Assembly (NCBI GenBank): GCA_049517415.1
Contig: JBEKSC010000004.1
Location: 64,001 to 128,000 of the forward strand
Length of the DNA stretch: 64,000 nt
Reading direction: 5' to 3'
From: Candidatus Bathyarchaeia archaeon
Lineage (GTDB): Archaea > Thermoproteota > Bathyarchaeia > 40CM-2-53-6
The notes under the pieces are model-generated. The model was not told the DNA's origin. It did not search any database and worked only from the letters and a program-made list of their open reading frames with translations. This document shows positions 2,852-55,120 of the stretch, one piece after another. The stretch's first letter is position 1; each line of letters begins with the position of its first letter. Position numbers and translations under genes: made by a program.

Positions 2852-5794
2852 TTGACTCGCACATTATCTCGCAAGCCCCTACTACTCCTAACAGTATTAG
2901 CTTTCGTACTGTTTCTAACTCCAGCCCAGCCGTATAATTTCAGCACAACTAACACTGGGTCAGTCCAGAACGCGTCCGTGAAGGACGGGAAACTATCTTT
3001 CAATGGTGGGAACCGTGGTGGTCTCTTGGGCGCAGGGGCCATTCAACCAGTATTTGCCTACGGCACTGGACAGTATGCCAGCCTAGAACTCGGACAAAAA
3101 CCAGCAAGCTTCATTGAGGGCAGCGCTTGGCCATTCACTCAGTATGGACTGTTTGAACCGAAGGGGTTAGGAGTTGATTCGCATGGTAACGTCTGGGTTG
3201 CGGATTATTATGATAATCGTGTTTTGGAGTTTACCCGCCCATTCAGTAATGGTGAAAATGCGGTGTTGGTGTTAGGGCAGTCAGGCTACGGTACGTACAC
3301 AGCTGCGGATACCCCGAGCGGAATGAACGGCCCAAGTGGTGTAGCGGTTGATTCGAGTGGTAACCTTTGGGTTGCTGACGCGGGGAATAATCGTGTTTTA
3401 GAGTTTACTTGCACCGCCACTAGCACTTGTTCGAACGGTAACACTGCGGTAATGGTGCTGGGGCAATCAGCCTTCAACACCAAGACAGCTGCGGATACTA
3501 TGAGCGGAATGAGCGGACCAACTGGCTTAACGTTTGATTCAAATCATTGGCTGTGGGTTTCAGATACCGGGAACAATCGTGTTTTAGAGTTTACTTGCAC
3601 CGCCACTAGCACTTGTTCGAACGGTAGTGACTGGGTGGAAGTGCTGGGTCAATCATACTACGGCACCAACACAGCTGCTGACACCCAGAACGGAATGAGC
3701 GGCCCACGCGGTTTAGGGTTTGATGGTTCCAGCGTTCTCTGGGTTGCGGATTACGGTAATAATCGCGTTTTGGGGTTTGTTTGCACCGCCCGAGAGAATT
3801 GTGCGTGGGGTAGTAGTGCGTCGGTGGAGCTGGGTCAACCAAGCGGCGCAACAGCCTTCACTACAAACACCGCTGCCACCTCCCAGAGCGGAATGAGCGG
3901 ACCAAGTGACGTAGTGACTGATTCGCACGGTTACCTCTGGGTTTCGGATTTTGGTAATAATCGCGTTTTGGAATTTACTTGCGACTACGGGTATGGTTGT
4001 TCGGATGGTAATGATGCGGTGCTGGTGCTGGGTCAGTCGGGCTTCAGCACAAAAACTTCTGCTACCTCCCAGAACGGAATATGGGAACCATACGGTTTAG
4101 GGTTTGATTATTCCGGTAATCTCTGGGTTGCGGATCACGTGAATAGTCGAGTGTTAGCGTTTTGGGCCAACGAGGTGACGGCTGATAGTGACATCATAAC
4201 CCTCAGTGGTGGGGATGGGTCGTTTACGTCTAGTCTGACGAGTATGACGGTTACGATTAGCGGATCAACAGCTAGCGCATCCGTCTTTATCTTACCTCAG
4301 ACTCTCTCCACACAGAATTATGGCCTCCCGACGTTCGAGTTGAATAATCCAAAGCTCTTCGACGTAGCCATCTCAGGGATAACAACTGGCACAGCCAACG
4401 TGTGCGTACCGGACAGTTTAGCGGATTCAGCCACCGTCATCCAATATTGGAACGGCATATATTTCTGGTCCACCGCGTCGAGTATAACTGTAACTGATGG
4501 AACATCGGTCTGTGGTAACATTCCCGTCTCCTCCCTGCAAGGAAACAACATTGGAGCGGGTGATCCAGTTACTCCGACTACAACGACGACCACAACCTTA
4601 ACTTCGACGAGCATTACCGCGACGACGAGTTCTACGAGTACGACTTCAACGTTTTCAACTATCACCGGCTCGACGACCTTATCCGCGGTCACGAATGCTC
4701 CGACGGTTACCGGGACCATGACGACCACTAGTACGGTTACTGGTCCCGTGGCTGGCACTGCCACCACGATCTACACGACTATTCTGTCCACAAGCACATC
4801 GACTAGTTTGGTGACTTCCAGTGTTGGGGAGACGACTACGGAGACGGGTGTGACGACGCTCAGCACCGGTACCTCGACCAGTACGGCTACGGAGACGGCG
4901 TTTGCGACGACGACGGCTGGTGGGACGGTGACGGTTACCGAGACGAATACTTTCAACGTGCTTTTGACGAATGTCTTTCATGAGTTGCATCAGTTTGCGG
5001 ACGAGTTCCTGCAGCTGGTCGGAGTCCAGCCAGTAGTCACACCCTTCGGTCAGCAGGTGAATAGTGTTCAGGTGACGGTTCTGACGCCATGTGCGGGCTG
5101 TGTTACAAGTACCAAGACTGCTCTTACCACTCTCACCACAGTTGTGGCTACGTTGTTGAAGGGGACGACTACTACTGCGACGTCGACTGCTTCTGCCACT
5201 GTTACGCGTACTACGCCTGTTGTGTTTAGTACGACTCAGACTGCGACTCGTTCTGCGACCGCAACAAAGACTCTGACTTCAACTGCAACTGTGACTAATA
5301 CCAAGTCGGTTACGGTGGTTTCTGCGGTTTCTACGAGTACCGTGACTCCAACTAAGACTGCGGCAACCGTCACCACAACGCCAACCTCCACGGCTGCTAC
5401 TGCGTCTGTGACTGCAACCAGTACTGCGGCTACCCTGCGTGTCCCCGCAACTACTACTGGCACGGATACCGACACTACTCAAGTGACTGTTACCTTCTAC
5501 AGCTACACTAACGTTATTGTTACGGCTACCTCGACCGCCACCGTGTTCTCGCCGACTGTTACGCTATCTACTACTGCGGCTACGTTGCGCGAGCCTGCAA
5601 CTACCACTACTGTCAGCAACACGGCCACTGCGACTAGCGTTAGCACTGCGTCTGTGACGAACACTAAGACTAGCACTCAAACCTCAACCGTTACGGTCCT
5701 CCACGTGGCTACGACAACTACTCAGACTACGGCCGCTGCCACTCCCACTGTAACAGTAGTCACCACGGTGACAACAACAACATCAGGCGCATGA
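2852..5794 (+). CDS. Secreted NHL-repeat beta-propeller protein with long Thr-rich C-terminal tail
   Basis: N-terminal hydrophobic signal, six 'GP.G...D..GNLWVAD..NNRVLEF' repeats, about 400 aa Thr/Val/Ser tail. Confidence 0.9.
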   Translation: MTRTLSRKPLLLLTVLAFVLFLTPAQPYNFSTTNTGSVQNASVKDGKLSFNGGNRGGLLGAGAIQPVFAYGTGQYASLELGQKPASFIEGSAWPFTQYGLFEPKGLGVDSHGNVWVADYYDNRVLEFTRPFSNGENAVLVLGQSGYGTYTAADTPSGMNGPSGVAVDSSGNLWVADAGNNRVLEFTCTATSTCSNGNTAVMVLGQSAFNTKTAADTMSGMSGPTGLTFDSNHWLWVSDTGNNRVLEFTCTATSTCSNGSDWVEVLGQSYYGTNTAADTQNGMSGPRGLGFDGSSVLWVADYGNNRVLGFVCTARENCAWGSSASVELGQPSGATAFTTNTAATSQSGMSGPSDVVTDSHGYLWVSDFGNNRVLEFTCDYGYGCSDGNDAVLVLGQSGFSTKTSATSQNGIWEPYGLGFDYSGNLWVADHVNSRVLAFWANEVTADSDIITLSGGDGSFTSSLTSMTVTISGSTASASVFILPQTLSTQNYGLPTFELNNPKLFDVAISGITTGTANVCVPDSLADSATVIQYWNGIYFWSTASSITVTDGTSVCGNIPVSSLQGNNIGAGDPVTPTTTTTTTLTSTSITATTSSTSTTSTFSTITGSTTLSAVTNAPTVTGTMTTTSTVTGPVAGTATTIYTTILSTSTSTSLVTSSVGETTTETGVTTLSTGTSTSTATETAFATTTAGGTVTVTETNTFNVLLTNVFHELHQFADEFLQLVGVQPVVTPFGQQVNSVQVTVLTPCAGCVTSTKTALTTLTTVVATLLKGTTTTATSTASATVTRTTPVVFSTTQTATRSATATKTLTSTATVTNTKSVTVVSAVSTSTVTPTKTAATVTTTPTSTAATASVTATSTAATLRVPATTTGTDTDTTQVTVTFYSYTNVIVTATSTATVFSPTVTLSTTAATLREPATTTTVSNTATATSVSTASVTNTKTSTQTSTVTVLHVATTTTQTTAAATPTVTVVTTVTTTTSGA

Positions 5795-9489: not shown

Positions 9490-10584
9490 ATGCGTCTCAA
9501 ACTCCGAGATTTCCTAGCCCTATCCACTGCAGCATACCTTCTCAGCGTTTCATCTAAGATACTTTATCCAGGATTCTATACAGACATTACCTCGCTATAC
9601 TACAGAGTCGTTCTCCCGACGAATAACGGAATCCCCTACCACGCCTACTTTCTTGAGTACCCGGCAATCCCGGCAATCATGATCTGGGTAAGCGGACTTG
9701 CGCCCAGCTTCTTCTACTACATAGTGACCATGGCTTTTCTGATATACCTCTTCGTCATAGCCGCTGTATACTTTCTCTACCGGACTTGCACGGAGTTTGG
9801 ATTGGATCGCGGAAGAATCATCCCGTTCTTCATAATGGCGCCGTCCTTCCTAGTTATGTCATTTTTCAACTGGGACATCGTAGCAATATGCTTCGTAATT
9901 GCAGCTATTTACTGCCTATTCAGAAAGAAGTCACGACTTTCGGGGTTCTGCTTGGGTTTGGGTTTTGCGGCTAAGGCCTATCCTCTGCTCCTGCTTCCTC
10001 CATTCATGAAAGAGGTAGGTTCGTGGCGCGATCGTTTCGAGATGCTGCTCTCAGCCGTCCTGGGTGGGCTGATTCCAAATTTGCCGTTCATCCTCATAGA
10101 TTTCCAAGCGTGGTTGAACTCGAATCTGTCGGCCAGACAGGCGGTGTACGTAGAAGATAGCATATGGATGGTGATACGCTACTACGGGTTAGCCACTCAA
10201 GATTGGCTGATAACGGCAGTGGCATGGTCACTTATAATTCTCGCAATTCTCCACATGACCTTTTCCAACAGGTCTCTCGTGCTGAAGGCATGGGTCATAA
10301 CCGCGGTGACGATTCTTGTTTTTCCATCCTACCCGCCCCAATACAATATATGGCTTCTTCCAATGTTTGTCCTAAGTCCGGTTTTCACCCTTATCCCATT
10401 CTTAGCCTTCGACTTTCTTAATTCAAGCATCATTCTCTCTTGGTTCTCGGTTGACAATCCGTTTCAGCCGTGGGGTCCAATCTGGGACATCAGTCTGATT
10501 AGAATAGGGCTTTTGGTGGTCTTACTGATTTGGGCTACCCGCCGAGGAGCCACCAATACTCAACAGCAATTTCCAGAGAAATAA
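9490..10584 (+). CDS. GT-C membrane glycosyltransferase (GT87-like)
   Basis: Polytopic; 'LEYP', 'NWD', 'GFAAKAYP', 'PQY.IWLLP' motifs. Confidence 0.85.
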   Translation: MRLKLRDFLALSTAAYLLSVSSKILYPGFYTDITSLYYRVVLPTNNGIPYHAYFLEYPAIPAIMIWVSGLAPSFFYYIVTMAFLIYLFVIAAVYFLYRTCTEFGLDRGRIIPFFIMAPSFLVMSFFNWDIVAICFVIAAIYCLFRKKSRLSGFCLGLGFAAKAYPLLLLPPFMKEVGSWRDRFEMLLSAVLGGLIPNLPFILIDFQAWLNSNLSARQAVYVEDSIWMVIRYYGLATQDWLITAVAWSLIILAILHMTFSNRSLVLKAWVITAVTILVFPSYPPQYNIWLLPMFVLSPVFTLIPFLAFDFLNSSIILSWFSVDNPFQPWGPIWDISLIRIGLLVVLLIWATRRGATNTQQQFPEK

Positions 10585-10971
10585 TCAAGTACCTTTGACT
10601 GCACGAATCCTCTTCGTTCGAAGTCAAGGAGCGTCATTTCGCATTTCTCGATTAGAGTTGCCCGCTGATCCCGCATCCAACCTACCCATTAATGCACACC
10701 TCTTTCGAGATCAATCGATGATTTAAGCTGAATCGCCGGGTCTCCGACTCCCTGGCCAAGAAGAAAACATCTCATGCGTCTAGCCACACAGGAATCCAGT
10801 TACGCAATAACGAGACTGTTTGGATCCGTGTTACAAGGTCTACGGTGGAATGCTAAGCTTGAGGCATTTGTTATCAGAAAGAACTTCTTTTCGCATAAAC
10901 CGCGTATCCGTTTTTCTCGTGAGTTCACTCCGACTACTTGGAGCATGGTTGTAGTTTTTGCGATATTTTGG

Positions 10972-12066
10972 TCAGGGCCGCTGAAACGGATGTGAGAGCA
11001 TGAAGCCCGGTCCGCGCCGAGCTATGGGATGATAGATTTTGCCCAAGCCTAACCTTAGTTCGATGCTCCAAGGGATTAAACTCCGCTTAAGCTCCGAATC
11101 GGGGAAGCGTCGGGATCTCTGAATTCTTCTTCGCTCTAGAACTGTATCTTTGAGTTGCCGCAGATTCCAAATGTAAGCGGATAACACGGCACGAACCTCT
11201 TTTGCGTCTTTATCGACGATTACGGCGTATCCTATGTGAAGTATTTTTAGAATTGCGAGAGTAGGAAATATGGTTACAAGCGTTCTCACTTGGTAATTCT
11301 TTAGCAGTGTTCGGAACCGGTTACGTTCCCACAACCCGATTATCCCGCTGCGACCACTTGCCATCATCGTTCCCATATGGTGGTGGTAAACTACCGACCT
11401 GGGATTGTACGCAATCTTGTGGCCCCTTAAGATGAGACGCCACGAGAAGTCTACGTCCTCGTGATAGATCATGTAAGTTTCGTCAAGATATCCGATTTCA
11501 TCAAATACGGATTTCCTGACAATGGCGGCTCCGAGACACCCATAGGGCACATAACAGGGTTGGTCGTATTGGCCTCGGTCCACTTCACCTATGCCTCGAT
11601 TGTAGGCAAAGCCGTAGTAGTCGCATGCGCCTCCGGTTGAGTTGAGTCGTCCATGGAAATCGTACATTTTCGGCACCGTCATAGCGACATTTGGGTCTTG
11701 GTGGTCCTTCATTAGGATGTTGAGCCAATTGGGAGTAACCTTCATGTCATTGTTGAGTAAGCAGACGAAGGGTGCGTTAGATTTGCTGACCGCAAAATTA
11801 AGGGCTCGAGAAAACCCCAGGTTAGTTCCCATCTCAATTAATTTCACGTTTGGATAGTTTTTTCGAACAAAATCCTGAGAGCCATCGGTGGAGCCATTAT
11901 CAACAACATGGACTGTGAAATTAGGCCATGTCATTTTGAAGAGTGATGGTAATATTCGCTTTAAGTGGTTTTGACCATTGTAATTCAGGACGAAGACATC
12001 GATCTTAGGACTAGCGTACCTTTGCTTTCCACTATGCGTTGTTCTTCTCTGTTGGCTCATGTCCAA
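10972..12066 (-). CDS. Glycosyltransferase family 2
   Basis: 'VVDNGSTDGS', 'LLNND', 'EDVDFSWR' motifs. Confidence 0.95.
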   Translation of the reverse strand: MDMSQQRRTTHSGKQRYASPKIDVFVLNYNGQNHLKRILPSLFKMTWPNFTVHVVDNGSTDGSQDFVRKNYPNVKLIEMGTNLGFSRALNFAVSKSNAPFVCLLNNDMKVTPNWLNILMKDHQDPNVAMTVPKMYDFHGRLNSTGGACDYYGFAYNRGIGEVDRGQYDQPCYVPYGCLGAAIVRKSVFDEIGYLDETYMIYHEDVDFSWRLILRGHKIAYNPRSVVYHHHMGTMMASGRSGIIGLWERNRFRTLLKNYQVRTLVTIFPTLAILKILHIGYAVIVDKDAKEVRAVLSAYIWNLRQLKDTVLERRRIQRSRRFPDSELKRSLIPWSIELRLGLGKIYHPIARRGPGFMLSHPFQRP

Positions 12067-18139: not shown

Positions 18140-18194
18140 GGCTTGAAATCGTGAGGGTGCTGAGCTGAAAGAAACTCAGCGAAGGAAAGAAAGC

Positions 18195-18826
18195 TTAGGC
18201 TAACGTGATCTGCACAGTAGCGATCCAGGAAGCTGCGGCCTTCAACTTATGTATTGAAGGTTTCCGCTAACCTTAGTGCCCATCGCTTGCTGCGCACGGT
18301 CCAGCATCGTTCCGCCACCGGCAGCCGCGTTGAAGATACCGATTTCATTCCACGCATAGTCGGCGACGGCGCTGGCAAAGGTTGCCTGCCAAGTCGCCAG
18401 CTGCGAAGATCCGAAAGTCGGGTATCCTCCATTCATGGCTGCGTATGCTTTGTTCGTGCTGGCTTGAAGTGCGACCTGTGTTGCTACTGCCGCGCTTGTG
18501 CTATCACCCACACCGATGTACGCGTTGACATTGTTGAATAGAGTTGCACCCGTCCCGGCTACTAGAGTCCAAAGTATGTTGATTCCAGCGTTCAGAAGGC
18601 AGTTGCCGCGGAATCGTTTGATGGCCAGTAATGTGTCGAACTGTCGCATGATCTCGTCTAGCCCTACGCCGTCTATGGCTGCGCGAGCCACACGGTCCTT
18701 GGGGTCCCTGAATTTGTGGATCGTGAACTGCGAATAGTGCTGGGCGTAGTCGTGTGCGCCGTATCGTTGGGCGACGCGGATGGCGGCTCTTGCAATAGCC
18801 CGATCTACTAGGTTCTGGCCTGTCAA
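18195..18826 (-). CDS. Minor tail protein, spliced (join 18826-18262, 18232-18195), 200 aa
   Basis: 'YIGVGD', 'ATF...A.YAWNEIGIFNAA.GG.ML.R' tail-protein pattern; intron removal gives C-terminus GTKVSGTSWIATVQITLA-stop. Confidence 0.8.
18233..18261 (-). other. 29-nt BHB intron in mRNA
   Basis: GCGG AA|A CCUUCAA-loop-UUGAAGG CCGC AG|C; removal restores the frame. Confidence 0.85.
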
Positions 18827-19008
18827 GTTCCCCCACCCTCCACATAGCGAGCGAGTTCTGCGATCACTGCGTTAGCGCTCATCATTAGGGCAGCAGAAAC
18901 AGGGCCCAGTTTCAGTGTGCCGTCTTGACTTGTCAGTATCAAGTTGCCGTTGACGTCCGACTGGAGAGTCCAATCGGCGTTCTGGACTGCGAAATTAAAA
19001 TAGCTCAT
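18823..19008 (-). CDS. Small viral hypothetical protein
   Basis: GGAGG RBS, stop overlaps the next start. Confidence 0.65.
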   Translation of the reverse strand: MSYFNFAVQNADWTLQSDVNGNLILTSQDGTLKLGPVSAALMMSANAVIAELARYVEGGGT

Positions 19009-19084
19009 AGAAATTTTTCCTCCACTTCCCTATCTACTTGTAAGGCGCTGCTGTTAGGAGGCGCCATCATTCAGTAACGAATGA

Positions 19085-21172
19085 TTATGCTGCCAGGGTG
19101 ATTCCGGCGCTGAGGTCGCTTAGCATTCGGCTTGAGGTTTCGTCAAGCTCCCACAGTTGAGGCATACGCCGGTTCAGGTCGATTGTGGCAATCGTCGGGT
19201 CACTTAGATCCCGCTGAATGCGAACCACGGTGTATAGGCCAGCTAACCCGAGGTCGGGAATGTTGACGGTAATCGAATCCTCAGGCCCGAAAGTGTCTGG
19301 AGGATTCGTGTCTCTCACAGTTATTTGGGCGATGAGTTCGGTGTTTTCGGAATCCGCGAGCATAGCCTGACAGGCTATGGCTAGGGTGGTTGCGTCGGTG
19401 ACGGTTTTCTGGAATGCCACCTGTTCAATTAAGCCGTATTTGTTGATGCTATCGCTGTCACTTTGAATGCTGACTATACCGTTTCCAACCAGGTACATTC
19501 GGTTGCCCATCGTGGAGAAATCTAGTTCACTCGTTGAGTCACCCACCGTATCGCCTTCATTGAAGGCAACGTTCGATGTGCCGCCTCCGAACTGCGAGGC
19601 GAAGTCAAGGGTCAAGTTCGGGTTGACTCGGTACGTCCAACCAATGAGGCCGCAAACCTGCTGGATCGCAGCGCGAAGCGTAACATCAGTGAAAAGTACG
19701 CTTGGTAACGTGATGCCCGTAGTGCCTAGCTGTCCCACCATTATGCCGCATTGGTAATTGGTTAGTAGGCTGTTGATGATGAACTCTGGGCTTGCCGCAA
19801 GAAACTCCGCTTCCTGAATTATTCGGGTGTCTAAGAGTTTGGAGGCGTCAGAACCTGAAAGAGTAATCTTGTACGAGCTGCCTATAGTTCGCTTAATATC
19901 CTCTAGGAGTCCAGCGTACTCTAAGACACCGTACCGATAGACCCGAACGATTCCCCGCGGCGTAAGCGTTGGATAATAACGCGGCAGGTCGAACGTGAAG
20001 GTTTCGATCTTCTGCTGATAGTTCTGCCCGTAATGACTTGTGCCACCGGTTCCACCCACATAGGAATACGGGCAGCCCTCAACGTATAGTTGGAAAGGCT
20101 GCGTTTCATCCGGTCCCTCAGCATCGTAGAATACGTGAACGTTGACGAAGCCGGTTGCAGCGCCCACGGTAGCGTCGCCCGTCCAAGTTGCTTGAACCAC
20201 AGCGAGGCCCGGGGTGGTCGAGGTGAGGGATACGACCGCTAACCCAGCGGCGCTTGTGGTCGCACTTGCCGCGCTGAGTGTTCCGAGGGAGGTTGAGAAG
20301 TTAATTGTTTTACTAGGATACGGTAACTTGGTAGCTAAATTGATCAGCGTAGCCGTGATAACTGCAGTTGTCGGCTGGGCTTTGGATGGGGCGTTCTTCT
20401 GGTAAATCTGAAAATTATCCACGGTGAGACTCAACGTTTGAAGCGGTGTCCAATTCCAAACGTCGCCGCCACACATTGTTTGAGGCTGCGTCTGCTCAAC
20501 TAAAGTTGAACCATCGGCGGCGTAGACCATCGCGTATATTTGCGCGGGCAAAGCAGCCCAAACACTCGCAAGACTGATGACGACTGATGTGGCGTTACCA
20601 GCACAGGTGGCAGACCCGACTAAGCCACCGCCGGGTCCAGCCGTGTAGAGTGAAACTTTCTGACCGCCAGCTAACCCAGTTATAGTTACATTGTTAGACG
20701 AGTAGATCAGTAGGTCCTCGACAGCGATCTCTACGCTTTGGCCAGAAGTATCGGGGCTAAGGGCGAAAGCGTAACCGATCTGAATTTGTTGCGTACCACC
20801 CGGTAGAGTACCCTGTATGCCTGTCCAAGCTGCTTCACCAACGGTACCGAAACTGGTGCTTCCCACTTTAAGTGCGGCAACGTTCGACCTACCTGCAGCT
20901 GGCGGAATTGGCGTCTTGTAATTCAGCCGGAAAACTGCGCCGGTTCCGAGGTTGAAGGACTGATAGAAGTAAGCGTAGGCTTCGAAGCACGCGTAGAAAA
21001 GAGCCCACGCGTTGCCGTTGCTGAACGCCGTAGTCTCAAAGAAACCTGGGACGGTGCATGTTCCCAGACTATAATTATCGTTGGGCGTATCCCAAATGGT
21101 GGTTTTCCAATTACCGAGCGAACTTAAATCGCTACTGTAAATGATGCCCGAGGACCGCTGTGTGAGCGTCAA
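19085..21172 (-). CDS. Tail tip/baseplate hub protein with an Ig-like (Big-1) domain
   Basis: Follows the tape measure gene; 'TINFSTSLGTL...TT...G.A.V.LTS..PG' Ig-like segment; hub-like C-terminal half. Confidence 0.7.
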   Translation of the reverse strand: MTLTQRSSGIIYSSDLSSLGNWKTTIWDTPNDNYSLGTCTVPGFFETTAFSNGNAWALFYACFEAYAYFYQSFNLGTGAVFRLNYKTPIPPAAGRSNVAALKVGSTSFGTVGEAAWTGIQGTLPGGTQQIQIGYAFALSPDTSGQSVEIAVEDLLIYSSNNVTITGLAGGQKVSLYTAGPGGGLVGSATCAGNATSVVISLASVWAALPAQIYAMVYAADGSTLVEQTQPQTMCGGDVWNWTPLQTLSLTVDNFQIYQKNAPSKAQPTTAVITATLINLATKLPYPSKTINFSTSLGTLSAASATTSAAGLAVVSLTSTTPGLAVVQATWTGDATVGAATGFVNVHVFYDAEGPDETQPFQLYVEGCPYSYVGGTGGTSHYGQNYQQKIETFTFDLPRYYPTLTPRGIVRVYRYGVLEYAGLLEDIKRTIGSSYKITLSGSDASKLLDTRIIQEAEFLAASPEFIINSLLTNYQCGIMVGQLGTTGITLPSVLFTDVTLRAAIQQVCGLIGWTYRVNPNLTLDFASQFGGGTSNVAFNEGDTVGDSTSELDFSTMGNRMYLVGNGIVSIQSDSDSINKYGLIEQVAFQKTVTDATTLAIACQAMLADSENTELIAQITVRDTNPPDTFGPEDSITVNIPDLGLAGLYTVVRIQRDLSDPTIATIDLNRRMPQLWELDETSSRMLSDLSAGITLAA

Positions 21173-21173
21173 C

Positions 21174-23507
21174 TCATGTTACCGCCGTGTATTTGTAGCC
21201 TGAACCAAATTTTCTTTGCCGAATAATCTTCTGCTCAAGTATGCTTGCGACCGTTTGCCCATCCAACTGAACGACGGTTTGGTTCTGAAGTTGCATCGGG
21301 CCGGATCCTCCTTGGGAAGTTGGCGCTGCGGGTGGCGTTAGACCTGCGCCTATGGCTGCCTGTTGCGCCGGCGTTAGAACCTCCTCGCCGCCGTGAAGCA
21401 TGTAGATCCCCGTTGTGGGAACCATGCCGCCGAGTTGATAGCCTGGGCCTGTAAATTCTCCAAGTCCAGCCCCCGAAAGGCTCACGTTAATGCTGGTCAT
21501 AATCTCGCTGGGGATTTTGTCGAGCCAACTGATGACGTTTTGAATAACGCTGATCGCATCATCCGCAATCGTGGTGACAGTCGTTTCTATCATCGACGGA
21601 ATTGTAGAGATAACTGCGGTGACTTGGTCGAATCCAGTAACCGCATCCGAAACCACAGAACTAACAGTGATGTCCTTTGTGGACGGGATTGCCGCTAAAC
21701 CTGAGGTAACGGCGCCGAACGCTGCCTGCGCCCCACTTTGAATCTGCGACCATGTATTACTGAGAGCCGCAGCCACAGGCTGCACGGCCGTTGTTACTTT
21801 AGACCATAACGTTGAGCCAAGGTTAGTGTTGATTTGGTTTCCAATATTCAAAGTGGTAGTGGCCAGCGGCCCCATCCCGCTCGCTGCTGCGGTGGTCACG
21901 TCGTCCGTTCCAGTAGTCGTATCCTGGGTGGTCTTAGCCCAGAGGCCGTTCCACCAGTCGGTTAGATCTTGCCCCGCTGTCTGCGCGCCCTTCTGGATGC
22001 CCGTCGTGAAATTAGCCCAGTCCTGCTGGTACGTTTGAAGCCACCCGGGGGCGTTTTGTTCTTGGTTCGCGCCAGTGAAAATTTGGTCGGTCGGCGGGTT
22101 TAGGTTCTTTTGACTGAAAGCTTCGGGCGGTGGCGTTACATTCGTAAGTGTGGCCTGGTATGTCGGGGCGTTGGATTGAGGAATGACTTGGGCCGTCTGT
22201 GCAGTCGCGACGCCCATTGGTATGATGCCTACACTTTGAAGCCACTTCACATCGGTCATGATGGCGTTTAAGAAATCCATGCCCGTGATCGCGAGGTCGA
22301 GTGCTACTTCAATTGCGCCTTTAGCAACCTCAGAGACGAACCCCATGAGTTCAGTCAAGTCGCCAGAAGCCACGAACCCCGAGAAGACGCCCATGAATTT
22401 ACTCCACGTTGTCTGGACGCTTGGGTCGAGGGCTAGTGAAGTGATCCAGCTTGTGAATTTGGGCAGGTTGTCGTCAAGCCAACTGGTGAGGGATGTGAGT
22501 GTGGGGAGAAGCATGTCTCCAATTTGTATTTGGAGGTCGGCCCATTCGTTCGTGAGTTGCTGCTGCTTTCCCGCGTACGTGTCCAGCTGGGTTTGAGCTG
22601 CGCTCCCGAACTTATCGTTCAGCTGCGCCATAATGTCGTTGTAGTCTGACGCCTTAGCCGTTGCCCAGTCAAAGTTGATGCCCAGGGCGTGAGTTATGTC
22701 GTTCATCTGGGATGTGGTGATGGTGCCGGCTTTCCATGCGGTAACTAACTCGCCCGTAATCTGTGTCGCAGTCAGCTCTTTCCCGGTAGTAGTTGTGAGG
22801 CTGATTCCTGCCTGTTGAAGTATCTGTGTGAAGGGTTGTAGGGCGTTGACGCCGGCTTTCTGAATCGCAGCCGTTAAGTCGGCGGTTCCTTGTTTAAGAT
22901 CTGCGTTCGCCTTCGTCGTAGTCTGAATAATAATTCCGTACCGGGAGAGGGTGGTTGTGACACCGTCGAATGCTTTCCCGACAAGGTTCACGGCAGTGGT
23001 TAGGTCAAGATTCTTCGCGGCGGACAGGTTAGTTGCGACGGTCAGCGCTTGTTCCGCTTGCGTTGCGTTCATGCCGTAGGTTGCAAGAAGTTGCAGCCCC
23101 TGAACGGCAGCGGTTTGGCTGACGGTTGAAACCTGCTCTAAGCCCTGGACGAAGTTCTGGATCTGTGGTTGCTGCGCAGCCCAGGCGGCGCCGGTTAGGT
23201 GGAGGGATTGTTGAAGCATCGCCCACGCTGACTGTGAAGCTGCCGCAGCGGCTACGGCTTGTTGTATGCCTTGGACGACTTCGCCGATTCCAATAACCGC
23301 CGCGCCTGTCCATCCTGCAACCGCGAAGCCTTGCATCATCTGGCCGACTTGCGCGAAGCCTGGGCCGAGCTGCTGCAACTCCATACCCATTAGGCCCATT
23401 GAAGCGCTAATCTTCCCCATCACACTACTTGCTTCGTGACGGCGCCGTTTTTGTTACGGCTCTACCGCTTGGATGGCGAAGACTATACTTCCGATGTTTG
23501 TACTCAA
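21174..23507 (-). CDS. Tail tape measure protein, spliced (join 23507-23462, 23437-21174), 769 aa
   Basis: Long Ala/Gly/Thr-rich helical protein ('VGKAFDG...L.RYGI', C-terminal 'LHGGEEVLT', 'VQLDGQTVA'); TTG start with GGTGA RBS upstream of an intron. Confidence 0.9.
23438..23461 (-). other. 24-nt BHB intron in mRNA
   Basis: G CGGU AG|A GCCGU-AACAAAA-ACGGC GCCG UC|A C; carries an in-frame UAA; spliced product reads AIQAVDEASS. Confidence 0.85.
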
Positions 23508-23566
23508 ATCACGTTCACCTTCGTGGATGGTGTTTCTTAAAAATCGGAAGCCAGGTTCGTTGCAGG
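23497..23566. repeat. Imperfect direct repeat A, copy 1 (chaperone-GT end and tape-measure start)
   Basis: Matches 25336-25408 (tttgtactcaaatca..ttcaccttcgtggatg..). Confidence 0.85.
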
Positions 23567-23849
23567 GATGGTCCCATGTTGGCGCAAGCGCAAGAAGTCG
23601 AAAGGCTCCGCGAAGAAAACAGGGGACATAGAGAAATTTAATCGGCTAGAAAAAGTTGCCAATGAGATAATGATAAAGCAAGAGGAACGAATCAAGAAAC
23701 TAGAGACCGCATCAAGCCTCAAGGTCGAGCACCCAAGCCACGATAAGACGCCCGTATCCAAGGACAAGAAGCCTTAATCAAACTCTAGGGACGATAATTG
23801 GCTTTGTCGTCCTCCAATTCTGAAGACCCTATCCCGTTTTTCGCCATTC

Positions 23850-24364
23850 TCATGTGTTTATGGGAAGCTTGAAGTACATGAATGGCTCGCGCCGACCTTT
23901 CGGTTGATTTTCAGCCAGTTTGAATCCGCAATGTTCGTAGAAAGGAATAGACGCTATCTTTGCATTTAGTATCACAAATTGACATGCAACTTCCTCACGT
24001 ACTTTGGCAGCTGTGGCGATGGCATAGAGGCAGAGTATTCGGCCGACTCCCTTGCCTTGAAATTGCAGTTCAGTAGCAAGTCGTCCAATCATCAATGACG
24101 GATAGTATCGGTACGGCGTGTGCAACGGGCGGTGTTTTTCGTCAATGCTACTGACTTCGATGCTGCTCATACAAGACTCAAGAAGCCTGCAATTTGCGTG
24201 TTGAACAAGGCCAGATAAATGACAGCCGCGTGCTGAAGTTGCTGGTCTTTGGCTTGGTATCTTATGTAGTCATTAAGGTCTGAATTGCCGCAGTCAAAGA
24301 ACCCTGTGTCGTCAGCTATGCTTAGCTTGCGTAGGTTGATTTCTTCGACGGAAAAGATGGACAA
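23850..24364 (-). pseudogene. GNAT acetyltransferase toxin, frameshifted near 24170
   Basis: 'FDCGNSDLNDYI' in the first ORF; 'IGRLA....QGKGVGR' and 'FYE.CGF' in the second. Confidence 0.85.
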
Positions 24365-24373
24365 GAAAATAAG

Positions 24374-24502
24374 TTACTTCGGGAAGCGTTTCAAAGCCTC
24401 TTCGACTAATCTCTTCTGCGCTTCTGTCGGAGGCTCCGCTGCGTCTTTCAAGAACGCCTCTGCTTCCTTCCCCTTCAAGGTTGGGGGTGGATTTGGTAGC
24501 AT
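24374..24502 (-). CDS. Small putative antitoxin of the GNAT toxin (42 aa)
   Basis: Manual translation MLPNPPPTLKGKEAEAFLKDAAEPPTEAQKRLVEEALKRFPK with GGAGG RBS. Confidence 0.65.
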   Translation of the reverse strand: MLPNPPPTLKGKEAEAFLKDAAEPPTEAQKRLVEEALKRFPK

Positions 24503-24598
24503 TTTCGTATCCTCCGTTGTCCATTATATCATCATGATGACGATGCCATATAAGTCGTATGCTTGGAAATTAGAACCCTCTCGAACTTCGCTAAGCTG

Positions 24599-24815
24599 TC
24601 AAGTCGTAGTGGCAGCAGTCGTAGTGATAGTTACAGTGACAGACCTCGTCGCAGTGTTAGTAACCGTAGCAGACTGCGTGTAAGTCACACTCCTAGTTGA
24701 AAGGGTCTTAGTGGAGGTAACACTCACAGTGCTCGAGGTAACCGAATTGCTGGTCTGAGTGGCGCTCATGGTCCGAGTGTTAGTTACGGTCGCAGTACTA
24801 GTAACTGTGGCACTC
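24599..24815 (-). pseudogene. Orphan 3' fragment of a Thr-rich secreted protein gene
   Basis: Translates SATVTSTATVTNTRT...TVTITTTAATTT-stop with no start or signal peptide. Confidence 0.7.
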
Positions 24816-24952
24816 TTTCCAAAAGTACGTGCACAAGAGGAAGTTGAATGTAACGCTTAGTTCCATCCTTCTGGGTGAAAAGGTAGCTGAGATACTTGCA
24901 GACAATCTTGGTTCCCGCAGCTTGAGACATGGGAAGCCCAAGAAAGCTACCA

Positions 24953-25168
24953 CTACATGACCATTACAGGATCTGACGGAACTTTCATCACGAATGGGAT
25001 CTTGTCTGGGTACTGGTGCTTGGCCTTTATGAAGACCTCTTTCGCGGAATTGCCTTCAGCGATGATCTTGTCGTCCACAACAGCAATCCAGCAATTCACA
25101 TAGTCCCCTAGCTTATCTCCAATTGACATTACGTACTCTAGTTCTCCTTTCATGGGGAATTTCCTCAA
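24953..25168 (-). CDS. DUF5678-like small protein
   Basis: 'Y..CWIAVVDDKIIAEG.SAKEV...AK..YP...PFV.KVP'. Confidence 0.8.
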   Translation of the reverse strand: MRKFPMKGELEYVMSIGDKLGDYVNCWIAVVDDKIIAEGNSAKEVFIKAKHQYPDKIPFVMKVPSDPVMVM

Positions 25169-25335
25169 GAGAGAGATGACCGGTGGTCATCACTCTATAT
25201 TTATGTGTAGTCACCAAGGCACACTCTCAATGCATCCCACTTCGATCTGAACTCTAGCTTCAGAGCCCTGCACTCCTCAGCGTGCGATTCACTTAATCCA
25301 AAATCAGGGGACTGTACCAACCCCTCGCGGGAATT

Positions 25336-25408
25336 TTTGTACTCAAATCATTTTCACCTTCGTGGATGCTGTTTTTTAAAAATGAGAAGCAGCCACTCTT
25401 GTTGTAAA
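25336..25408. repeat. Imperfect direct repeat A, copy 2
   Basis: Matches 23497-23566. Confidence 0.85.
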
Positions 25409-25985: not shown

Positions 25986-26021
25986 GGCAGGAGGTAGACG
26001 CCAAGGTAGGATGATAAGTAT

Positions 26022-26044
26022 TTATTGATAACAGTTATCAATAA
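26022..26044 (+). promoter_or_regulatory. Palindromic operator overlapping an AT-rich promoter of the TA operon
   Basis: TTATTGATAAC-A-GTTATCAATAA perfect inverted repeat ending 16 bp before the ATG. Confidence 0.7.
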
Positions 26045-32087: not shown

Positions 32088-33077
32088 CTATGCGTGTACG
32101 TTGGTGATTTCGTTGATTGCAGTCGTGACGCCGGTTTGTGGTTGCAGGTACTGGCGCATTATGTATGCGTCGTAGCCTGCGGCTTCGTTTCTGTACCTTG
32201 CCGCTTCGGTCGGGCCAGATCCCAAAATCATTGCGGATACTGGGTCTAGCACGTAGCAGCTGGTTGTCGGGGTTATGAAGAAGTCGCTGTAACCCATGAC
32301 TCCTGGTAGGCCTGGGATTTGGAATCCTCCGCCCTGCGTAAAGTCTGGGTACACTGCGCCGGCTAGTTGGCCTTTGACGTAGTCGTTGCCGAAGAACGCG
32401 GACCATCCAGTCGGGTGCATCACTACTGACGTCGGATGGTAGCCCGCGGTTGCGATCGTAGTCATAGCGCCGATTATGTCCGTGTACGGGTTGAATTCGC
32501 TGCGGCCGCTTGCTAGTGTGGTCCAGAGGCCGCTTGCAGCCGGTTGCAAGCCTCCAGCTGCGGCGAAGGCTTGGCTGATCTGGTGGTTCTCGCTGTATGC
32601 TAAGGCACCTGCGGCGTCTCGGGTTGCAGTTCCGAAAATATCCACGTTCGCTAGTCTCTGCAATTCGTCCGACACGACGACGTGTTGAACGTTCTTCCAG
32701 AGAGCGAAGGTGACAGTGGTCCACGCGTCGGGGTCAAGGGAAGCTTCCACAAGTGGCGGAACCTTCTCTGTTGCCGTTCCCTTCGTGTAGATCGGAATGC
32801 TTGCCTTGAGCGCGTTCATGGTGATGATGCGGCATGTGTTGCGCAGGTTGTACACTGGCCTTTGCAGGCCCAGTATTTCCTGCAGCAAGATTGGGATGTT
32901 GATGGCGCTGATATCCGATAGGCTCGGGAGCGCTGCTTGCTTCATATTCCGAGCGTTGAAGATTTTGCGATTGACGTCGCCGATTCTGCCCTGATAGACG
33001 TTGTTCGTGGTTGGGTCGAACCAACCAATTTCTTGTAGTTCTCCTTGTAGTCCACCATCAAGTTTGTCCATGTTCAA
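32088..33077 (-). CDS. Major capsid protein (HK97 fold, inferred)
   Basis: 329 aa downstream of protease and decoration genes; 'VVMHPTGW' typical of MCPs; GAGG RBS. Confidence 0.8.
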   Translation of the reverse strand: MNMDKLDGGLQGELQEIGWFDPTTNNVYQGRIGDVNRKIFNARNMKQAALPSLSDISAINIPILLQEILGLQRPVYNLRNTCRIITMNALKASIPIYTKGTATEKVPPLVEASLDPDAWTTVTFALWKNVQHVVVSDELQRLANVDIFGTATRDAAGALAYSENHQISQAFAAAGGLQPAASGLWTTLASGRSEFNPYTDIIGAMTTIATAGYHPTSVVMHPTGWSAFFGNDYVKGQLAGAVYPDFTQGGGFQIPGLPGVMGYSDFFITPTTSCYVLDPVSAMILGSGPTEAARYRNEAAGYDAYIMRQYLQPQTGVTTAINEITNVHA

Positions 33078-38437: not shown

Positions 38438-38575
38438 TCATGCTTCACTGAGAACCATTGATGGGCGCCTCGCACGTAGCTGCAGATCCCGTATGTCTAG
38501 GAGTACCTCGAGGCGGAGAGCGTCGAGTGGGTTTCCGGACTTTGCGTCGGCTTCGATTTCTTTTCTCGGTCTCAT
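38438..38575 (-). CDS. Small viral protein (45 aa)
   Basis: ATGA overlap with the portal stop; 'LEVLLDIRDL'. Confidence 0.55.
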   Translation of the reverse strand: MRPRKEIEADAKSGNPLDALRLEVLLDIRDLQLRARRPSMVLSEA

Positions 38576-40230
38576 TGTCCTTCTAGCTCTTGTTGTTCCG
38601 TTTCCTCTTTGACTTCAGCGGGGGATTCCGGCTCTTCAGTTGCTGGGCCGGTTGGGCTAGGTGGCTGCGTTGCTACCGGCTCTTTGACCTCCGCGGGGTC
38701 AAAAGCGGAAGAGGGTCCATCCCGCATGATCTCGTACGCCTTCTCTAAGTTCACGAATCCCAGCCCACCGTCGTAGGCAACTGAGACTGCGGTGAGGAGT
38801 GCGAAGAAGTCGGTTGTGCGAATCTCACGCCACCGATGCCGCACACGCACCGGCGGATCCTGGCCCGTGGGAGTCTTGAGGTAGAAGCGTGTCAGAGGGT
38901 CGTACCATTGCTGCTCAACAATAAGCTGCACCCACCGTTGAATAGCCGTTATTGGGCCATCGACAAAGGACTCCAGTTGACTATAGCTTGTTGCCCGGTT
39001 CACGGCTTCGGTGCGATTAAGAATGAATTTCGGAACCTGAAAGTTCCCAATGATCTCCTGGTCTAGGTCGGTCTTGACTGCGACGAGGCCTGGGAGGTCA
39101 GGCTTGATGTCGATAACCTGAACGGTCCAACGATTGTCTGTGGCAATATGCTTTCCAGGACGCAGCGATGCGATGTGCGTGTTAATGAGGTCCTGCACGT
39201 CGGCGTCGGTTAATCCGGCAGGCAGGCGATCCACATCTAGGCTGTGTATGGCTATGCCGGCCCAGAGAGTTGTCGCAGCCTCTTGGAGGTCTTCTATGCG
39301 GATCTTGGCCCTGGTGATCACGTCGTCTAGGACTGGTTCGATCTCGCTGAGGCCTTCCCAATCTGATTCGAGAGAGTTGTTTGTGAAATAGAGTAACTCG
39401 CTTGGTTTGTAGAAGTCTTTTTGGCCACGCCACCAGAACCCTTGCAGCACCCAGTCCTCGTCGACGTCGGGGCGCAGGTCGTAGATGGTTAGGAGTGGGA
39501 GGGAGATTAGGCGATTCGGTTCCATCTTCGCGTTGAGTTCAATTTCGAAACCTTTCTTGCCGTAAATCTTGGCACCGATGATGCCGGCATACAGAACATG
39601 GTCGAGGTCGACGCGGAGGTTGATTTTGTCAATCCACTGTTTCAACGGCAAATTATCAGCAATGATCTTTTCCTCTTGCTGCGGGGTTAGGCCTTCGCCG
39701 ACCGGTTCCAGAACAGCGTCGAAAGACTCCTTCGTGGTCCAGTAGGCGAGGGCGTTGATGCAGCCGCGCACGAGCGCATCCATACGATAGGCGCGGTAGT
39801 GCTTCTCCATCCCCTTGTAAGCGTCGAAGATGGTTTGCGTCATCCCAAGATAATATTGGGACTTGGCGGCTGAGAGCTGACGACTCAGAGGGAGGCCGCT
39901 TAGTTGCATTGCGGCTGCTTCAGCAACACGCCTCGAGCTAGAATGAACAGCAATACGAACGCCTTGGGGCGTTCCTAGATACGGGAAGGAGATCGTGTTC
40001 TCTTTCACTGTAACGCCTGGGATCCGTTCGAGAGCTGAGAAGTCGCCGAGGCCACTTGAACCGGCGACCCTGGTCCCTGCTAAGGGACGATGGTCTCTCA
40101 CCTCGGCCCGTTTGGTGGCCATCATCGGCCGCTTAGTTGTCGCGTTTCGCTTGTTTGTTACGGAACGCTTACGCCGCTTACGAGGCGGTGGTTTGTTCTT
40201 TGCCTTAGTCATTTCTTTTCGAAGACCCAA
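38572..40230 (-). CDS. Portal protein
   Basis: Follows the terminase; 'ELLYF......EGLSEIE', 'IIGNFQVPKFIL....NRATS'; start uncertain. Confidence 0.85.
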   Translation of the reverse strand: MGLRKEMTKAKNKPPPRKRRKRSVTNKRNATTKRPMMATKRAEVRDHRPLAGTRVAGSSGLGDFSALERIPGVTVKENTISFPYLGTPQGVRIAVHSSSRRVAEAAAMQLSGLPLSRQLSAAKSQYYLGMTQTIFDAYKGMEKHYRAYRMDALVRGCINALAYWTTKESFDAVLEPVGEGLTPQQEEKIIADNLPLKQWIDKINLRVDLDHVLYAGIIGAKIYGKKGFEIELNAKMEPNRLISLPLLTIYDLRPDVDEDWVLQGFWWRGQKDFYKPSELLYFTNNSLESDWEGLSEIEPVLDDVITRAKIRIEDLQEAATTLWAGIAIHSLDVDRLPAGLTDADVQDLINTHIASLRPGKHIATDNRWTVQVIDIKPDLPGLVAVKTDLDQEIIGNFQVPKFILNRTEAVNRATSYSQLESFVDGPITAIQRWVQLIVEQQWYDPLTRFYLKTPTGQDPPVRVRHRWREIRTTDFFALLTAVSVAYDGGLGFVNLEKAYEIMRDGPSSAFDPAEVKEPVATQPPSPTGPATEEPESPAEVKEETEQQELEGQ

Positions 40231-40452: not shown

Positions 40453-41902
40453 TCAACCAAACGATCGTGAGTACGGTTTGAAACCAGGGACCGTTGGGCC
40501 TCTTGTTGCGAATACGGCCAGGGCGACGGCCCAGGTGCGGTCGTCATGGGTACCGTCTGGGTGGCTGTACTGAATCTTGCCTGCCTTCGTGAGTTGGAAC
40601 CGTTCAATGTTCAGTTCGTTGGCTACATCGAGTTGGTAGGCGATTAGGAGCCGTTTCTGTTGCATCATCATCTTGAGGAAGTTCATGATGTCTTGCTTGG
40701 ATGACTCCGAGAGCATTATGCCCCCGACGTGGGGTACTGATTTCTTCGCTTCTTCTACGACGCTCTCTCCAACGCCGGTCTGGTCCATGAGAATCTTGTG
40801 GATGGTTTGCAGTTTCTGGTTGAGGACTTTGAGGAAGCTGATGACGCCTGTCTCGCCTGTGTAGTCTGTTCCGAGCGGGAAGATCTTCAGGCCCACTAGG
40901 CGGAAGATGTCACCGTCCTTCCTTATGACTGCCACGACACTGTAGTCGACTTTCTTCCCGAGGTCGACGCCGACCCAGTAGTCAGCGCGGGAGGTCTGGG
41001 GGGAGGTCTGTTGACCAGAAGCTGTGGAGTTCGCCGCCAAATTCCTTAATCTCCATTTCCGGATCCGTACAGCCAGTGATTAGCGAAGTAGGGAGCCAGC
41101 AATCGTCGTCTTCGCTCCACTCTGCTTCCATCTCACGGCGCCAACGCCACGGGTCGCTGGCGAACTGTTTCTTGATCTTCGCAAGGATCCCTTTCTTCAG
41201 GGGTCCGTTTGGTTCCAGGGCTTGTTCCCAGTTGACATGGTGACGGCTGTAATCATCGAACTCAGGGTCGTTGCAAATTTTATAGAATATGTGATTGCGG
41301 GACCAGGGCGTCGAGTTAGCGATGAAGAAACCGTTCGTTGTCCCAAGTGTGAAAAGAATAGCGTCGTACAGGTCGACGTCGTCACGGACGAAGTTGAACT
41401 CTGTCGCCAGGATTCCATTCAATGTTGGCCCGCGTATGGTGTCGGGGTTGCATGGGTAGGCTTCGATGATTGAGCCGTTGACTAGGGAGACCTTCGTCTT
41501 CAGCGGTTTCCTTCCGACTAGGATTTCCCGGTAGGGGACATCCTTGGGAAGGCTCTGTTGGATGAATGAGTTGATCTTGCGAATTACCAGCTTGCTTTGC
41601 CGAAAGCTGGGACCCACAACGGCCAGCTGCACTCCATCGTTGGCGACGGCGTACCAGAAGAGCTTGCTGCAAGCTGCGTAGTCTTTCCCCGACTGCCTGG
41701 ACCACAGCTGGGCGATGAATTGCGCCTTGTCTTCGAGGAACTCGACCTGGTATTTCGTGGGTTCGAATCCCAGGGCCTCCTTGCAGAATGCTACCGGGCC
41801 CTTCGCAGCGATCCGCTGTAACCGTTGAAACGCCCCGGTGACTTCGACAACACCTCTGTGGCGTTCCTCAACTTTCTTTTCGAGTTTTCGCCGCCAAGCC
41901 AT
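40453..41902 (-). CDS. terL: Terminase large subunit, split between ATPase (41902-40982) and nuclease (41040-40453) frames
   Basis: 'SRQSGKD' Walker A, 'IRG', 'STP', 'GVDLG', 'DQTGVG', 'HDD...A.ALA'. Confidence 0.9.
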
Positions 41903-54728: not shown

Positions 54729-54813
54729 CCGACTCAGCGGCCGTTTCCGGCATTAGCTTTATGTCGCTATAGCCCTACGAAGAGTTCTGTGCGGGGTAGG
54801 ACCTTTGGCTTAT

Positions 54814-55008
<195 letters not shown>

Positions 55009-55120
55009 TTTCTGCTAACGCATTCTCTTAGGACCACATCCTGAAGCCGTAGAACCGTATGCTGGTATACGGTATGCGGGATACTCAATACCCAAAACGT
55101 GCTCCATAGAACGACTGAGC

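Follow-up and report, generated by a model that had tools for sequence, protein, structure and literature searches.

Candidate tRNA-type micro-introns in tail-tip and tape-measure genes of a Bathyarchaeia head-tail provirus

We analyzed a 64,000-nucleotide stretch of DNA, referred to below as the window, that corresponds to C4:64001-128000 of the draft genome of a peat-soil archaeon in the class Bathyarchaeia. The genome (G000) was assembled from a metagenome and comprises 2.65 Mb in 59 contigs with a GC content of 0.50. A search for amoA gave no match, a result of little weight because the control for that family gave none either. The window contains a head-tail provirus gene cluster on the minus strand (15831 to 42638) in which a tail-tip gene and the tape-measure gene are interrupted by inserts of 29 nt and 24 nt, respectively. 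The inserts resemble the bulge-helix-bulge (BHB) introns that the tRNA-splicing enzymes EndA and RtcB remove, and they are predicted here to be spliced from viral mRNA. An initial annotation had recognized a head-tail virus cluster at this location, and terminase, portal, capsid, tape-measure, and tail genes are all present. TerL is divided between two open reading frames (ORFs), the portal gene is at 38572-40230 (minus strand), and the gene for the HK97-type capsid protein is at 32088-33077 (minus strand). The provirus also encodes a protease/scaffold region, an HK97-gp10-like protein, and a 695-amino-acid tail protein with a Prophage_tail domain, and it contains a 1.8-kb cargo insert. The gene order is collinear with that of an IMG/VR provirus contig (G061) and of a contig from a genome of the same genus (G021); these and similar handles (G051, L003) designate comparison genomes and loci. 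No integrase domain was found among 14 ORFs flanking the provirus.

We designated as gene A the gene for a 194-amino-acid protein of phrog_23653, a tail-tip protein family. Its first exon (18262 to 18826, minus strand) comprises 188 codons plus 1 nt. The second exon (18195 to 18232, minus strand) consists of 38 nt, including the TAA stop codon at 18195, and encodes the last beta-strand, (T)SWIATVQITLA. Insert 1 lies between them (18233 to 18261, minus strand, 29 nt). The tape-measure gene begins with a 46-nt exon (23462 to 23507, minus strand) that runs for 15 codons plus 1 nt from a TTG start codon at 23507. After insert 2 (23438 to 23461, minus strand, 24 nt), it continues in a 749-codon ORF (21174 to 23437, minus strand) that belongs to PHROG tape-measure families. 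A GGTGA motif at 23519-23515 is located 8 nt upstream of the TTG, and both the motif and the start codon are kept in the corresponding loci of G061 (L010) and G021 (L011).

In each insert the central helix is 4 bp long, and both of its strands have a 3-nt bulge on their 3' side. From the way positions in the anticodon arm of tRNA are numbered, we derive the same placement for a tRNA-type BHB, in which both bulges are 3' of the central-helix strands. For insert 1 the helix is GCGG/CCGC, the bulges are AAA and AGC, and the layout is GCGG-AA^A, an 8-bp hairpin (CCTTCAAT/GTTGAAGG, loop ACATAA), and CCGC-AG^C, where ^ marks the predicted cut. For insert 2 the helix is CGGT/GCCG (with one G-U pair), the bulges are AGA and TCA, and the layout is CGGT-AG^A, a 5-bp hairpin (GCCGT/ACGGC, loop AACAAAA), and GCCG-TC^A. 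The first base of both inserts is A, as had been noted before. The length of insert 2 is a multiple of 3, yet there is an in-frame TAA inside it. Minimum free energy folds include the 4-bp helix, a 3-nt bulge, and the hairpin, with z scores of -3.67 for insert 1 and -2.38 for insert 2. The helix closing the 3' bulge from outside is 1 bp in both inserts, and the inner helices are 8 bp and 5 bp. Thus, the helix, bulges, and hairpin that the initial annotation had described are present at both sites, but the strict hBHBh' form is not, and the inserts are of the relaxed HBh' form.

The positions of the predicted cuts could be compared with homologues that lack the inserts. Cutting after the second bulge base joins the 188 codons plus 1 nt of gene A to the 38-nt exon 2, so that the spliced protein ends in AMGTKVSG-T-SWIATVQITLA. 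The gene A proteins of G021 and G051 end in AMGTKASGATWIAALTITLS and LGTKTSDQTWIIQLEIMLS, respectively, each followed by the stop codon, and are equal in length to the spliced protein of the window; the stretches compared with GTKVSG-T-SWIATVQITLA of the window read GTKASGATWIAALTITLS in G021 and GTKTSDQTWIIQLEIMLS in G051. The C-terminal strand was contiguous in 78 of 80 gene A relatives retrieved from genome_contigs, mostly prophages of Dehalococcoidia and other bacteria with some archaea, in the pattern GTKxSGxTWxLxVxITLS. The homologues L003 and L004 are contiguous as well. The two noncontiguous relatives were L074, which is cut by a contig end, and L032, which has an intron of its own (see below).

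Cutting insert 2 in the same register joins the 46-nt exon 1 to the 749-codon ORF. The tape-measure genes of G061 and G021 have no insert and both read AIQAIDEASGVMGKIS (pattern AIQAIDEAS), in the surroundings FAIQAIDEASGVMGKISAS and TIQAIDEASGVMGKISAS. The unspliced gene of the window reads AIQAV, then EP, a stop, and QKRRRH from the insert, and then EASSVMGKISAS. The spliced gene reads AIQAV-D-EASSVMGKIS, with the codon of the conserved Asp (G^AC) formed across the junction. At both predicted junctions the homologues run on without a gap, and a cut after the second base of the bulge re-creates the conserved residues as well as the junction codon. Alignment with intron-less homologues had been proposed as a check on the claim that this cut restores the frame, and the claim held for both genes.

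The part of gene A behind insert 1 corresponds to a distinct structural element. In a predicted model of the intron-less homologue L003 (pLDDT 85, pTM 0.82) the fold ends in an 11-residue strand (E179-189) with blocks at pLDDT 92-95, and residues 179-189 are exactly the part encoded behind insert 1. The only PDB match to this model below an E value of 0.001 was a tail chain of Haloferax tailed virus 1 (HFTV1; E 3e-4, TM score 0.47), which weakly backs the identification of gene A as a tail gene.

Insert 1 recurs in G061, where it differs by a single change in the loop, and the 45 surrounding exon bases are identical even though the gene is 80-85% identical overall. The lack of exon differences around the insert suggests either that the region was exchanged recently by recombination or that the exon bases are constrained. 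Insert 1 is also found in L106-L108, and L109 holds its start at a contig end. These recurrences, together with comparisons among assemblies, bear on whether the inserts might be errors of assembly or sequencing. A metagenome-assembled draft in 59 contigs gives some reason for that suspicion. However, the 5,451 nt from 18150 to 23600 were found with 0 differences in contigs of four DNA assemblies or runs (2014-2020), each of which is possibly the source of this DNA, so that they are perhaps not independent; no RNA run was listed for this stretch. The agreement of the four assemblies indicates that the inserts are genomic, and with insert 1 also present in G061, L106-L108, and L109 we regard an artefact as extremely improbable. 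A blastn-short search of the introns against their own genome returned self matches only, which indicates that they do not belong to a repeated intron family.

Related proviruses have three further, independent inserts of the same kind. The capsid gene of G061 is interrupted by 39 nt (L014, 11561-11599; CCGG-AA^A...CCGG-AT^T) that include an in-frame TAG and are absent from the capsid genes of the window and G021. The spliced G061 capsid reads EAARYR-N-EAAGYDAYIMRQ (RYR-N-EAAGYDAY), matching the window and G021. Gene A has two more insertion sites. In L032, from another Bathyarchaeia genome, a 28-nt intron of other sequence is located 4 nt from the site used in the window, and the spliced protein ends in GQ-T-WVLTVSITWS. 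In L109, a metagenome allele with 86% identity, a 32-nt intron (GGGC-TA^T...GCCT-TG^T) yields MNGG-Y-PTFG when spliced. All five of the small discrete inserts that homology defines in these viral genes have the geometry described above in a register that restores the junction codon.

Two wider searches of the viral genes were made. BLAST searches with the predicted junctions of 2113, 1979, and 2654 relaxed candidates returned full 90-nt gap-free junctions only for the tape-measure insert and the G061 capsid insert; shorter or gapped matches were taken for repeats or misalignments, not each of them checked. Global DNA alignment gave approximately 70 gaps among indels of at least 10 nt, mostly noise in divergent stretches, and a BHB of at least 5 bp was flagged only at the tape-measure insert; this census mis-sized the capsid intron and is unusable as a denominator. 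A TAA in the capsid gene of G119 that was considered as a sign of another intron is a point nonsense codon.

The in-frame stops in some of these inserts are relevant to the possibility that ribosomes skip the inserts, either through programmed frameshifting or through a translational bypass like that of T4 gene 60. Known bypass sites have a hairpin after the break and identical take-off and landing codons flanking the gap. A hairpin does follow the break in the genes studied here, and the same virus has a sequence upstream of its tape-measure gene that is likely to be slippery. However, matching take-off and landing codons are present at neither insert of the window. Furthermore, a frameshift cannot pass insert 2 or the G061 capsid insert, because each has a length divisible by 3 and contains a stop codon in frame, and the same geometry is found in a tRNA-like gene of the window (see below). 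We therefore consider skipping by the ribosome very unlikely.

Inserts with this geometry were not confined to viral genes. The whole genome was screened for motifs whose removal joins two long open frames. Of 20338 motifs entered, 361 passed, 65 of these being 45 nt or shorter, and most appeared by eye to lie between adjacent genes. The screen recovered the tape-measure insert and two convincing host cases, in glyA, the gene for SHMT, and in the gene for the family B DNA polymerase PolB. Of six candidates compared with Pfam, these two were confirmed, three matched no Pfam family, and one looks like a pair of separate genes (CBS and amidohydrolase). The glyA intron (C45:3291-3322, 32 nt) and the PolB intron (C46:8896-8919, 24 nt) are both of the HBh' form. 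Exon 1 of glyA matches positions 4-50 of the Pfam SHMT profile up to its final residue, and exon 2 takes up the profile from its own first residue, matching positions 51-399. DNA_pol_B matches are found on both sides of the PolB insert, the build of which closely resembles that of insert 2. Thus, the genome-wide scan that had been suggested along with the first claims yielded two host introns confirmed by Pfam. The cbf5 gene of this genome is uninterrupted. A TAA inside an SHMT paralogue was rejected as a sign of an intron because it is the paralogue's own stop codon, and a mid-gene break of SHMT in G018 and G019 was rejected as a plain frameshift (in G019 judged from the like split).

Comparison across the genus provides evidence for selection on the glyA insert. 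The junction was found in 15 genus genomes. In 13 of them an intron of 30-34 nt occupies the same site, and in the other two it is cleanly absent and the gene reads TACGCCGAG^GGATGG or TACGCTGAA^GGATGG. Among 12 distinct sequences of the intron hairpin, 88% of cells are paired, compared with 30-46% in slid controls, and 7 of the 14 pairs have changed on both sides. The covariation score was reached by 0 of 500 shuffles, a figure that is not a probability because the sequences are related; the slid controls keep that relatedness. Retention of the insert across species in an essential gene under structural selection argues for mRNA splicing in this lineage.

The genome encodes the enzymes that such splicing would require. 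Two ORFs, in the regions C10:75178-75423 and C2:42070-42309, have the EndA domain tRNA_int_endo (PF01974), and one encodes RtcB (PF01139). The presence of two EndA paralogues suggests an enzyme of the alpha/beta type. Passages of PMC4090602 and PMC5829648 associate alpha/beta-type EndA with noncanonical introns. The genome also appears to be rich in tRNA introns: with introns allowed, ARAGORN reported an intron in 22 of 27 tRNA calls among those listed for G000, two of these introns being implausibly long.

A tRNA-like gene of approximately 218 nt at 54791-55008 (plus strand) in the window contains several inserts, and its acceptor stem, T arm, and CCA can be recognized by eye. Inside it, a 24-nt element (54861 to 54884, plus strand) has the same build as the inserts of the provirus. 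The likeness to tRNA introns at 54.8-55.0 kb that had been claimed initially thus applies to this element, but a full tRNA could not be rebuilt: removal of up to three BHB candidates from 54791-55008 gave a tRNA in 0 of 23 combinations. In the window as a whole, no tRNA was detected by Rfam searches at the gathering threshold or by E value, nor by default ARAGORN. At 55054-55078 (plus strand), 46 nt downstream of the tRNA-like gene and outside recognized genes, there is a compact motif of the BHB type (CGTA-GA^A, a 6-7-bp hairpin, TATG-CG^G).

Considered together, the sequence evidence leads us to interpret the two inserts, with a probability of roughly 0.8, as HBh' micro-introns spliced by EndA and RtcB from the pre-mRNAs of the tail-tip and tape-measure genes. 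The transcribed insert and the last 6 exon bases would fold into the 4-bp helix, the 3-nt bulge, and the hairpin. The host EndA would then cut after the second base of each bulge, and RtcB would ligate the exons. Splicing would restore the C-terminal beta-strand of the tail protein and would join the first 15 codons of the tape-measure gene to the remainder of its ORF. If so, assembly of the virus particles probably requires RNA splicing by the host. We infer cleavage and ligation of the viral transcripts, and any effect on virus assembly, from the DNA. The inserts would be part of a wider intron population in the lineage, which would include those in related proviruses (the capsid gene and two more sites in gene A) and in host glyA and PolB, and such inserts are gained and lost between close relatives. 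Colonization of a long-resident element by such introns, which the initial annotation had suggested, is not needed to explain their presence: G061 has insert 1 but lacks insert 2, and introns of this kind are also present in housekeeping genes of the host.

It might instead be that the inserts are never removed from the RNA and that the provirus is decaying or tolerates them, with gene A ending in the replaced C terminus VSGNLQYIS and the tape-measure protein starting from an internal GTG or ATG. In favor of this, both inserts sit near the ends of their genes, the GNAT gene of this provirus is frameshifted and its TerL is split, and one related capsid gene contains a plain nonsense codon. However, retention of the inserts leaves unexplained the codon-restoring register of helix, bulge, and hairpin in all five viral and both host small inserts. 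Essential proteins would be truncated by the capsid insert of G061 and by the mid-gene insert of L109, and the strand that gene A would lose is, in the model, a long and confident strand of the fold. The viral genes are also under purifying selection. Between the window and G061, the ratio of nonsynonymous to synonymous substitution rates (dN/dS) was 0.07 for portal, 0.09 for gene A, 0.16 for the tape measure, 0.19 for capsid, 0.19 for the tail protein, and 0.23 for a 548-amino-acid protein. Ratios of 0.07-0.23 at synonymous divergences (dS) of 0.4-1.5 indicate that these genes evolved as working genes. We therefore consider retention of the inserts unlikely, though it is the likeliest of the alternatives to splicing.

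Several observations nevertheless weigh against splicing as the explanation of the inserts. None of the seven inserts has more than 0-1 bp of outer helix, which places the 3' cut site outside a closed bulge. With so little outer helix, cleavage would need an EndA of broad specificity, a property that we infer solely from the two paralogues. Insert 1 offers no covariation, the loop change between the window and G061 being its only variant. The introns of the window are at the extremes of their genes, 15 codons after the start of the tape-measure gene and 12 codons before the stop of gene A, so that unspliced products might still function. Furthermore, the compact motif is common: it was found 48 times on both strands of the window and a mean of 34.5 times (range 22-52) in 40 dinucleotide shuffles, and thus the motif alone proves nothing. 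On the side of splicing, the shuffle rate implies by our estimate that a compact motif of a given length would fall on one particular site by chance with a probability of approximately 1e-5 to 5e-5, a few registers being allowed. Finally, some breaks in the viral genes, described next, are not of the BHB type, and they indicate that some decay or other recoding coexists with the proposed introns.

TerL is split into ATPase and nuclease ORFs with a +1 frame change at the same place in the window (40453-41902, minus strand), G061 (L014, ~3760-5176), and G021 (L016, ~9969-11721). The split in G021 has approximately 330 extra bases, and the nuclease ORF of G061 has its own ATG. We rejected a BHB intron at this site because no consistent BHB is present across the three proviruses, and one weak 31-nt candidate occurs in the window only. 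The split may reflect a two-subunit TerL or a recoding site. The break in the GNAT gene at ~24170 has no convincing BHB and looks like a plain frameshift.

Gene A of G061 also contains a 698-nt insert (L001, 3404-4101; G061, 22999-23696), which is found in L110 as well. It carries a 225-codon ORF with a LAGLIDADG_3 domain (E 9.5e-6) in frame with the upstream exon. The insert is in the same Tyr codon as the 32-nt mini-intron of L109, 1 nt apart, and both have the word GGTTAAC near the 3' end. The junction that homology defines lacks a strict BHB, and residues would be added in two alternative registers. A group I intron was rejected because L001 3300-4250 had no group I match when searched against Rfam by E value. 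Group I introns with homing endonucleases in phage genes are selfish inserts that RNA splicing makes harmless. The present inserts are comparable in that they would likewise be selfish inserts in virus genes that splicing makes harmless, with a LAGLIDADG gene in the very codon of gene A that elsewhere holds a mini-intron. Unlike group I introns, however, they have no ribozyme (the L001 insert having no Rfam group I match), and their removal would use host proteins.

The closest precedent is the BHB intron that the cbf5 pre-mRNA carries in Crenarchaeota (Watanabe 2002, Yoshinari 2006, Yokobori 2009; PMC2738675). Passages of PMC2738675 state that, as of that paper, no other archaeal pre-mRNA splicing had been confirmed beyond cbf5, and the reference list of a 2025 paper still has the cbf5 work alone for mRNA (PMC12397907). 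In the literature searched, cbf5 is the sole archaeal protein gene with demonstrated BHB splicing. Searches of full-text literature, a body that leaves most subscription journals outside its coverage, brought up no description of a BHB intron in any viral structural gene or Bathyarchaeia mRNA, and within that scope the initial annotation's statement that it knew of no such example in viral structural genes stands. As far as passages on the cbf5 intron describe it, that intron is similarly a short insert in a protein gene with a relaxed BHB, a link to hetero-oligomeric EndA, and gain or loss between relatives, and some cbf5 introns are in frame. The present inserts differ in being in viral tail, tape-measure, and capsid genes as well as host glyA and PolB, in having several sites per gene family, and in their Bathyarchaeia host. 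Splicing of cbf5 has been demonstrated, whereas that of the present introns is predicted from DNA.

Two other systems are informative. According to passages of PMC4090602, tRNA introns at noncanonical positions in Thermoproteota are cut by (alpha-beta)2 EndA. They share the helix-bulge-hairpin build and the size of the present inserts, and G000 is itself rich in tRNA introns, with one in the window. In contrast, the substrate proposed here is an mRNA, with no tRNA body to aid recognition and with an outer helix that is nearly absent. In protein genes of the rudivirus SIRV1, 12-bp putative introns have been described for which splicing is undemonstrated (Peng et al. 2004, as related in a passage of PMC2738675). 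Those are also small, are in protein genes of an archaeal virus, and were proposed to be introns. However, the SIRV1 inserts are 12-bp in-frame indels that arose during passage, whereas the present inserts are 24-39 nt long, bring in stop codons or shift the frame, and show a defined BHB geometry, and there are homologues without the introns.

We are inclined to think, with modest confidence, that Bathyarchaeia and their tailed viruses routinely splice mRNA with the tRNA machinery, with HBh' micro-introns that turn over in the essential host genes glyA and PolB and in capsid, tape-measure, and tail genes. Virion production would then need host EndA and RtcB, and the introns would spread between viruses by recombination, perhaps with homing endonucleases. 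If this is correct, archaeal mRNA splicing would no longer be a single-gene curiosity of cbf5 but would be general in a major class of archaea and its virome. A need of capsid, tape-measure, and tail genes for host tRNA-splicing enzymes would constitute a new virus-host dependency and a possible point of control or defense. Gene callers break or truncate such genes, as is the case for the last strand of gene A, the start of the tape measure, and glyA, which is split in two. Thus, proviruses may look dead when they are alive. The presence/absence polymorphism of the inserts and the LAGLIDADG gene in the codon of a mini-intron raise the question of how the introns move.

Some features elsewhere in the provirus were also observed. 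The cargo insert (~1.8 kb at ~23552-25340, minus strand) lies between the tail-chaperone and tape-measure genes and contains the frameshifted GNAT gene (23850-24364). It is bounded by a direct repeat of approximately 55 nt that duplicates the start region of the tape-measure gene (23497-23551 and ~25.34 kb), and the distal copy retains a ATTTTTAAAAAAC run that resembles a slippery site. Between genes of the provirus, at 26017-26044 (minus strand), there is an AT-rich perfect 9-bp palindrome (TATTGATAA/TTATCAATA) that the BHB motif search scores but that looks more like an operator or terminator.

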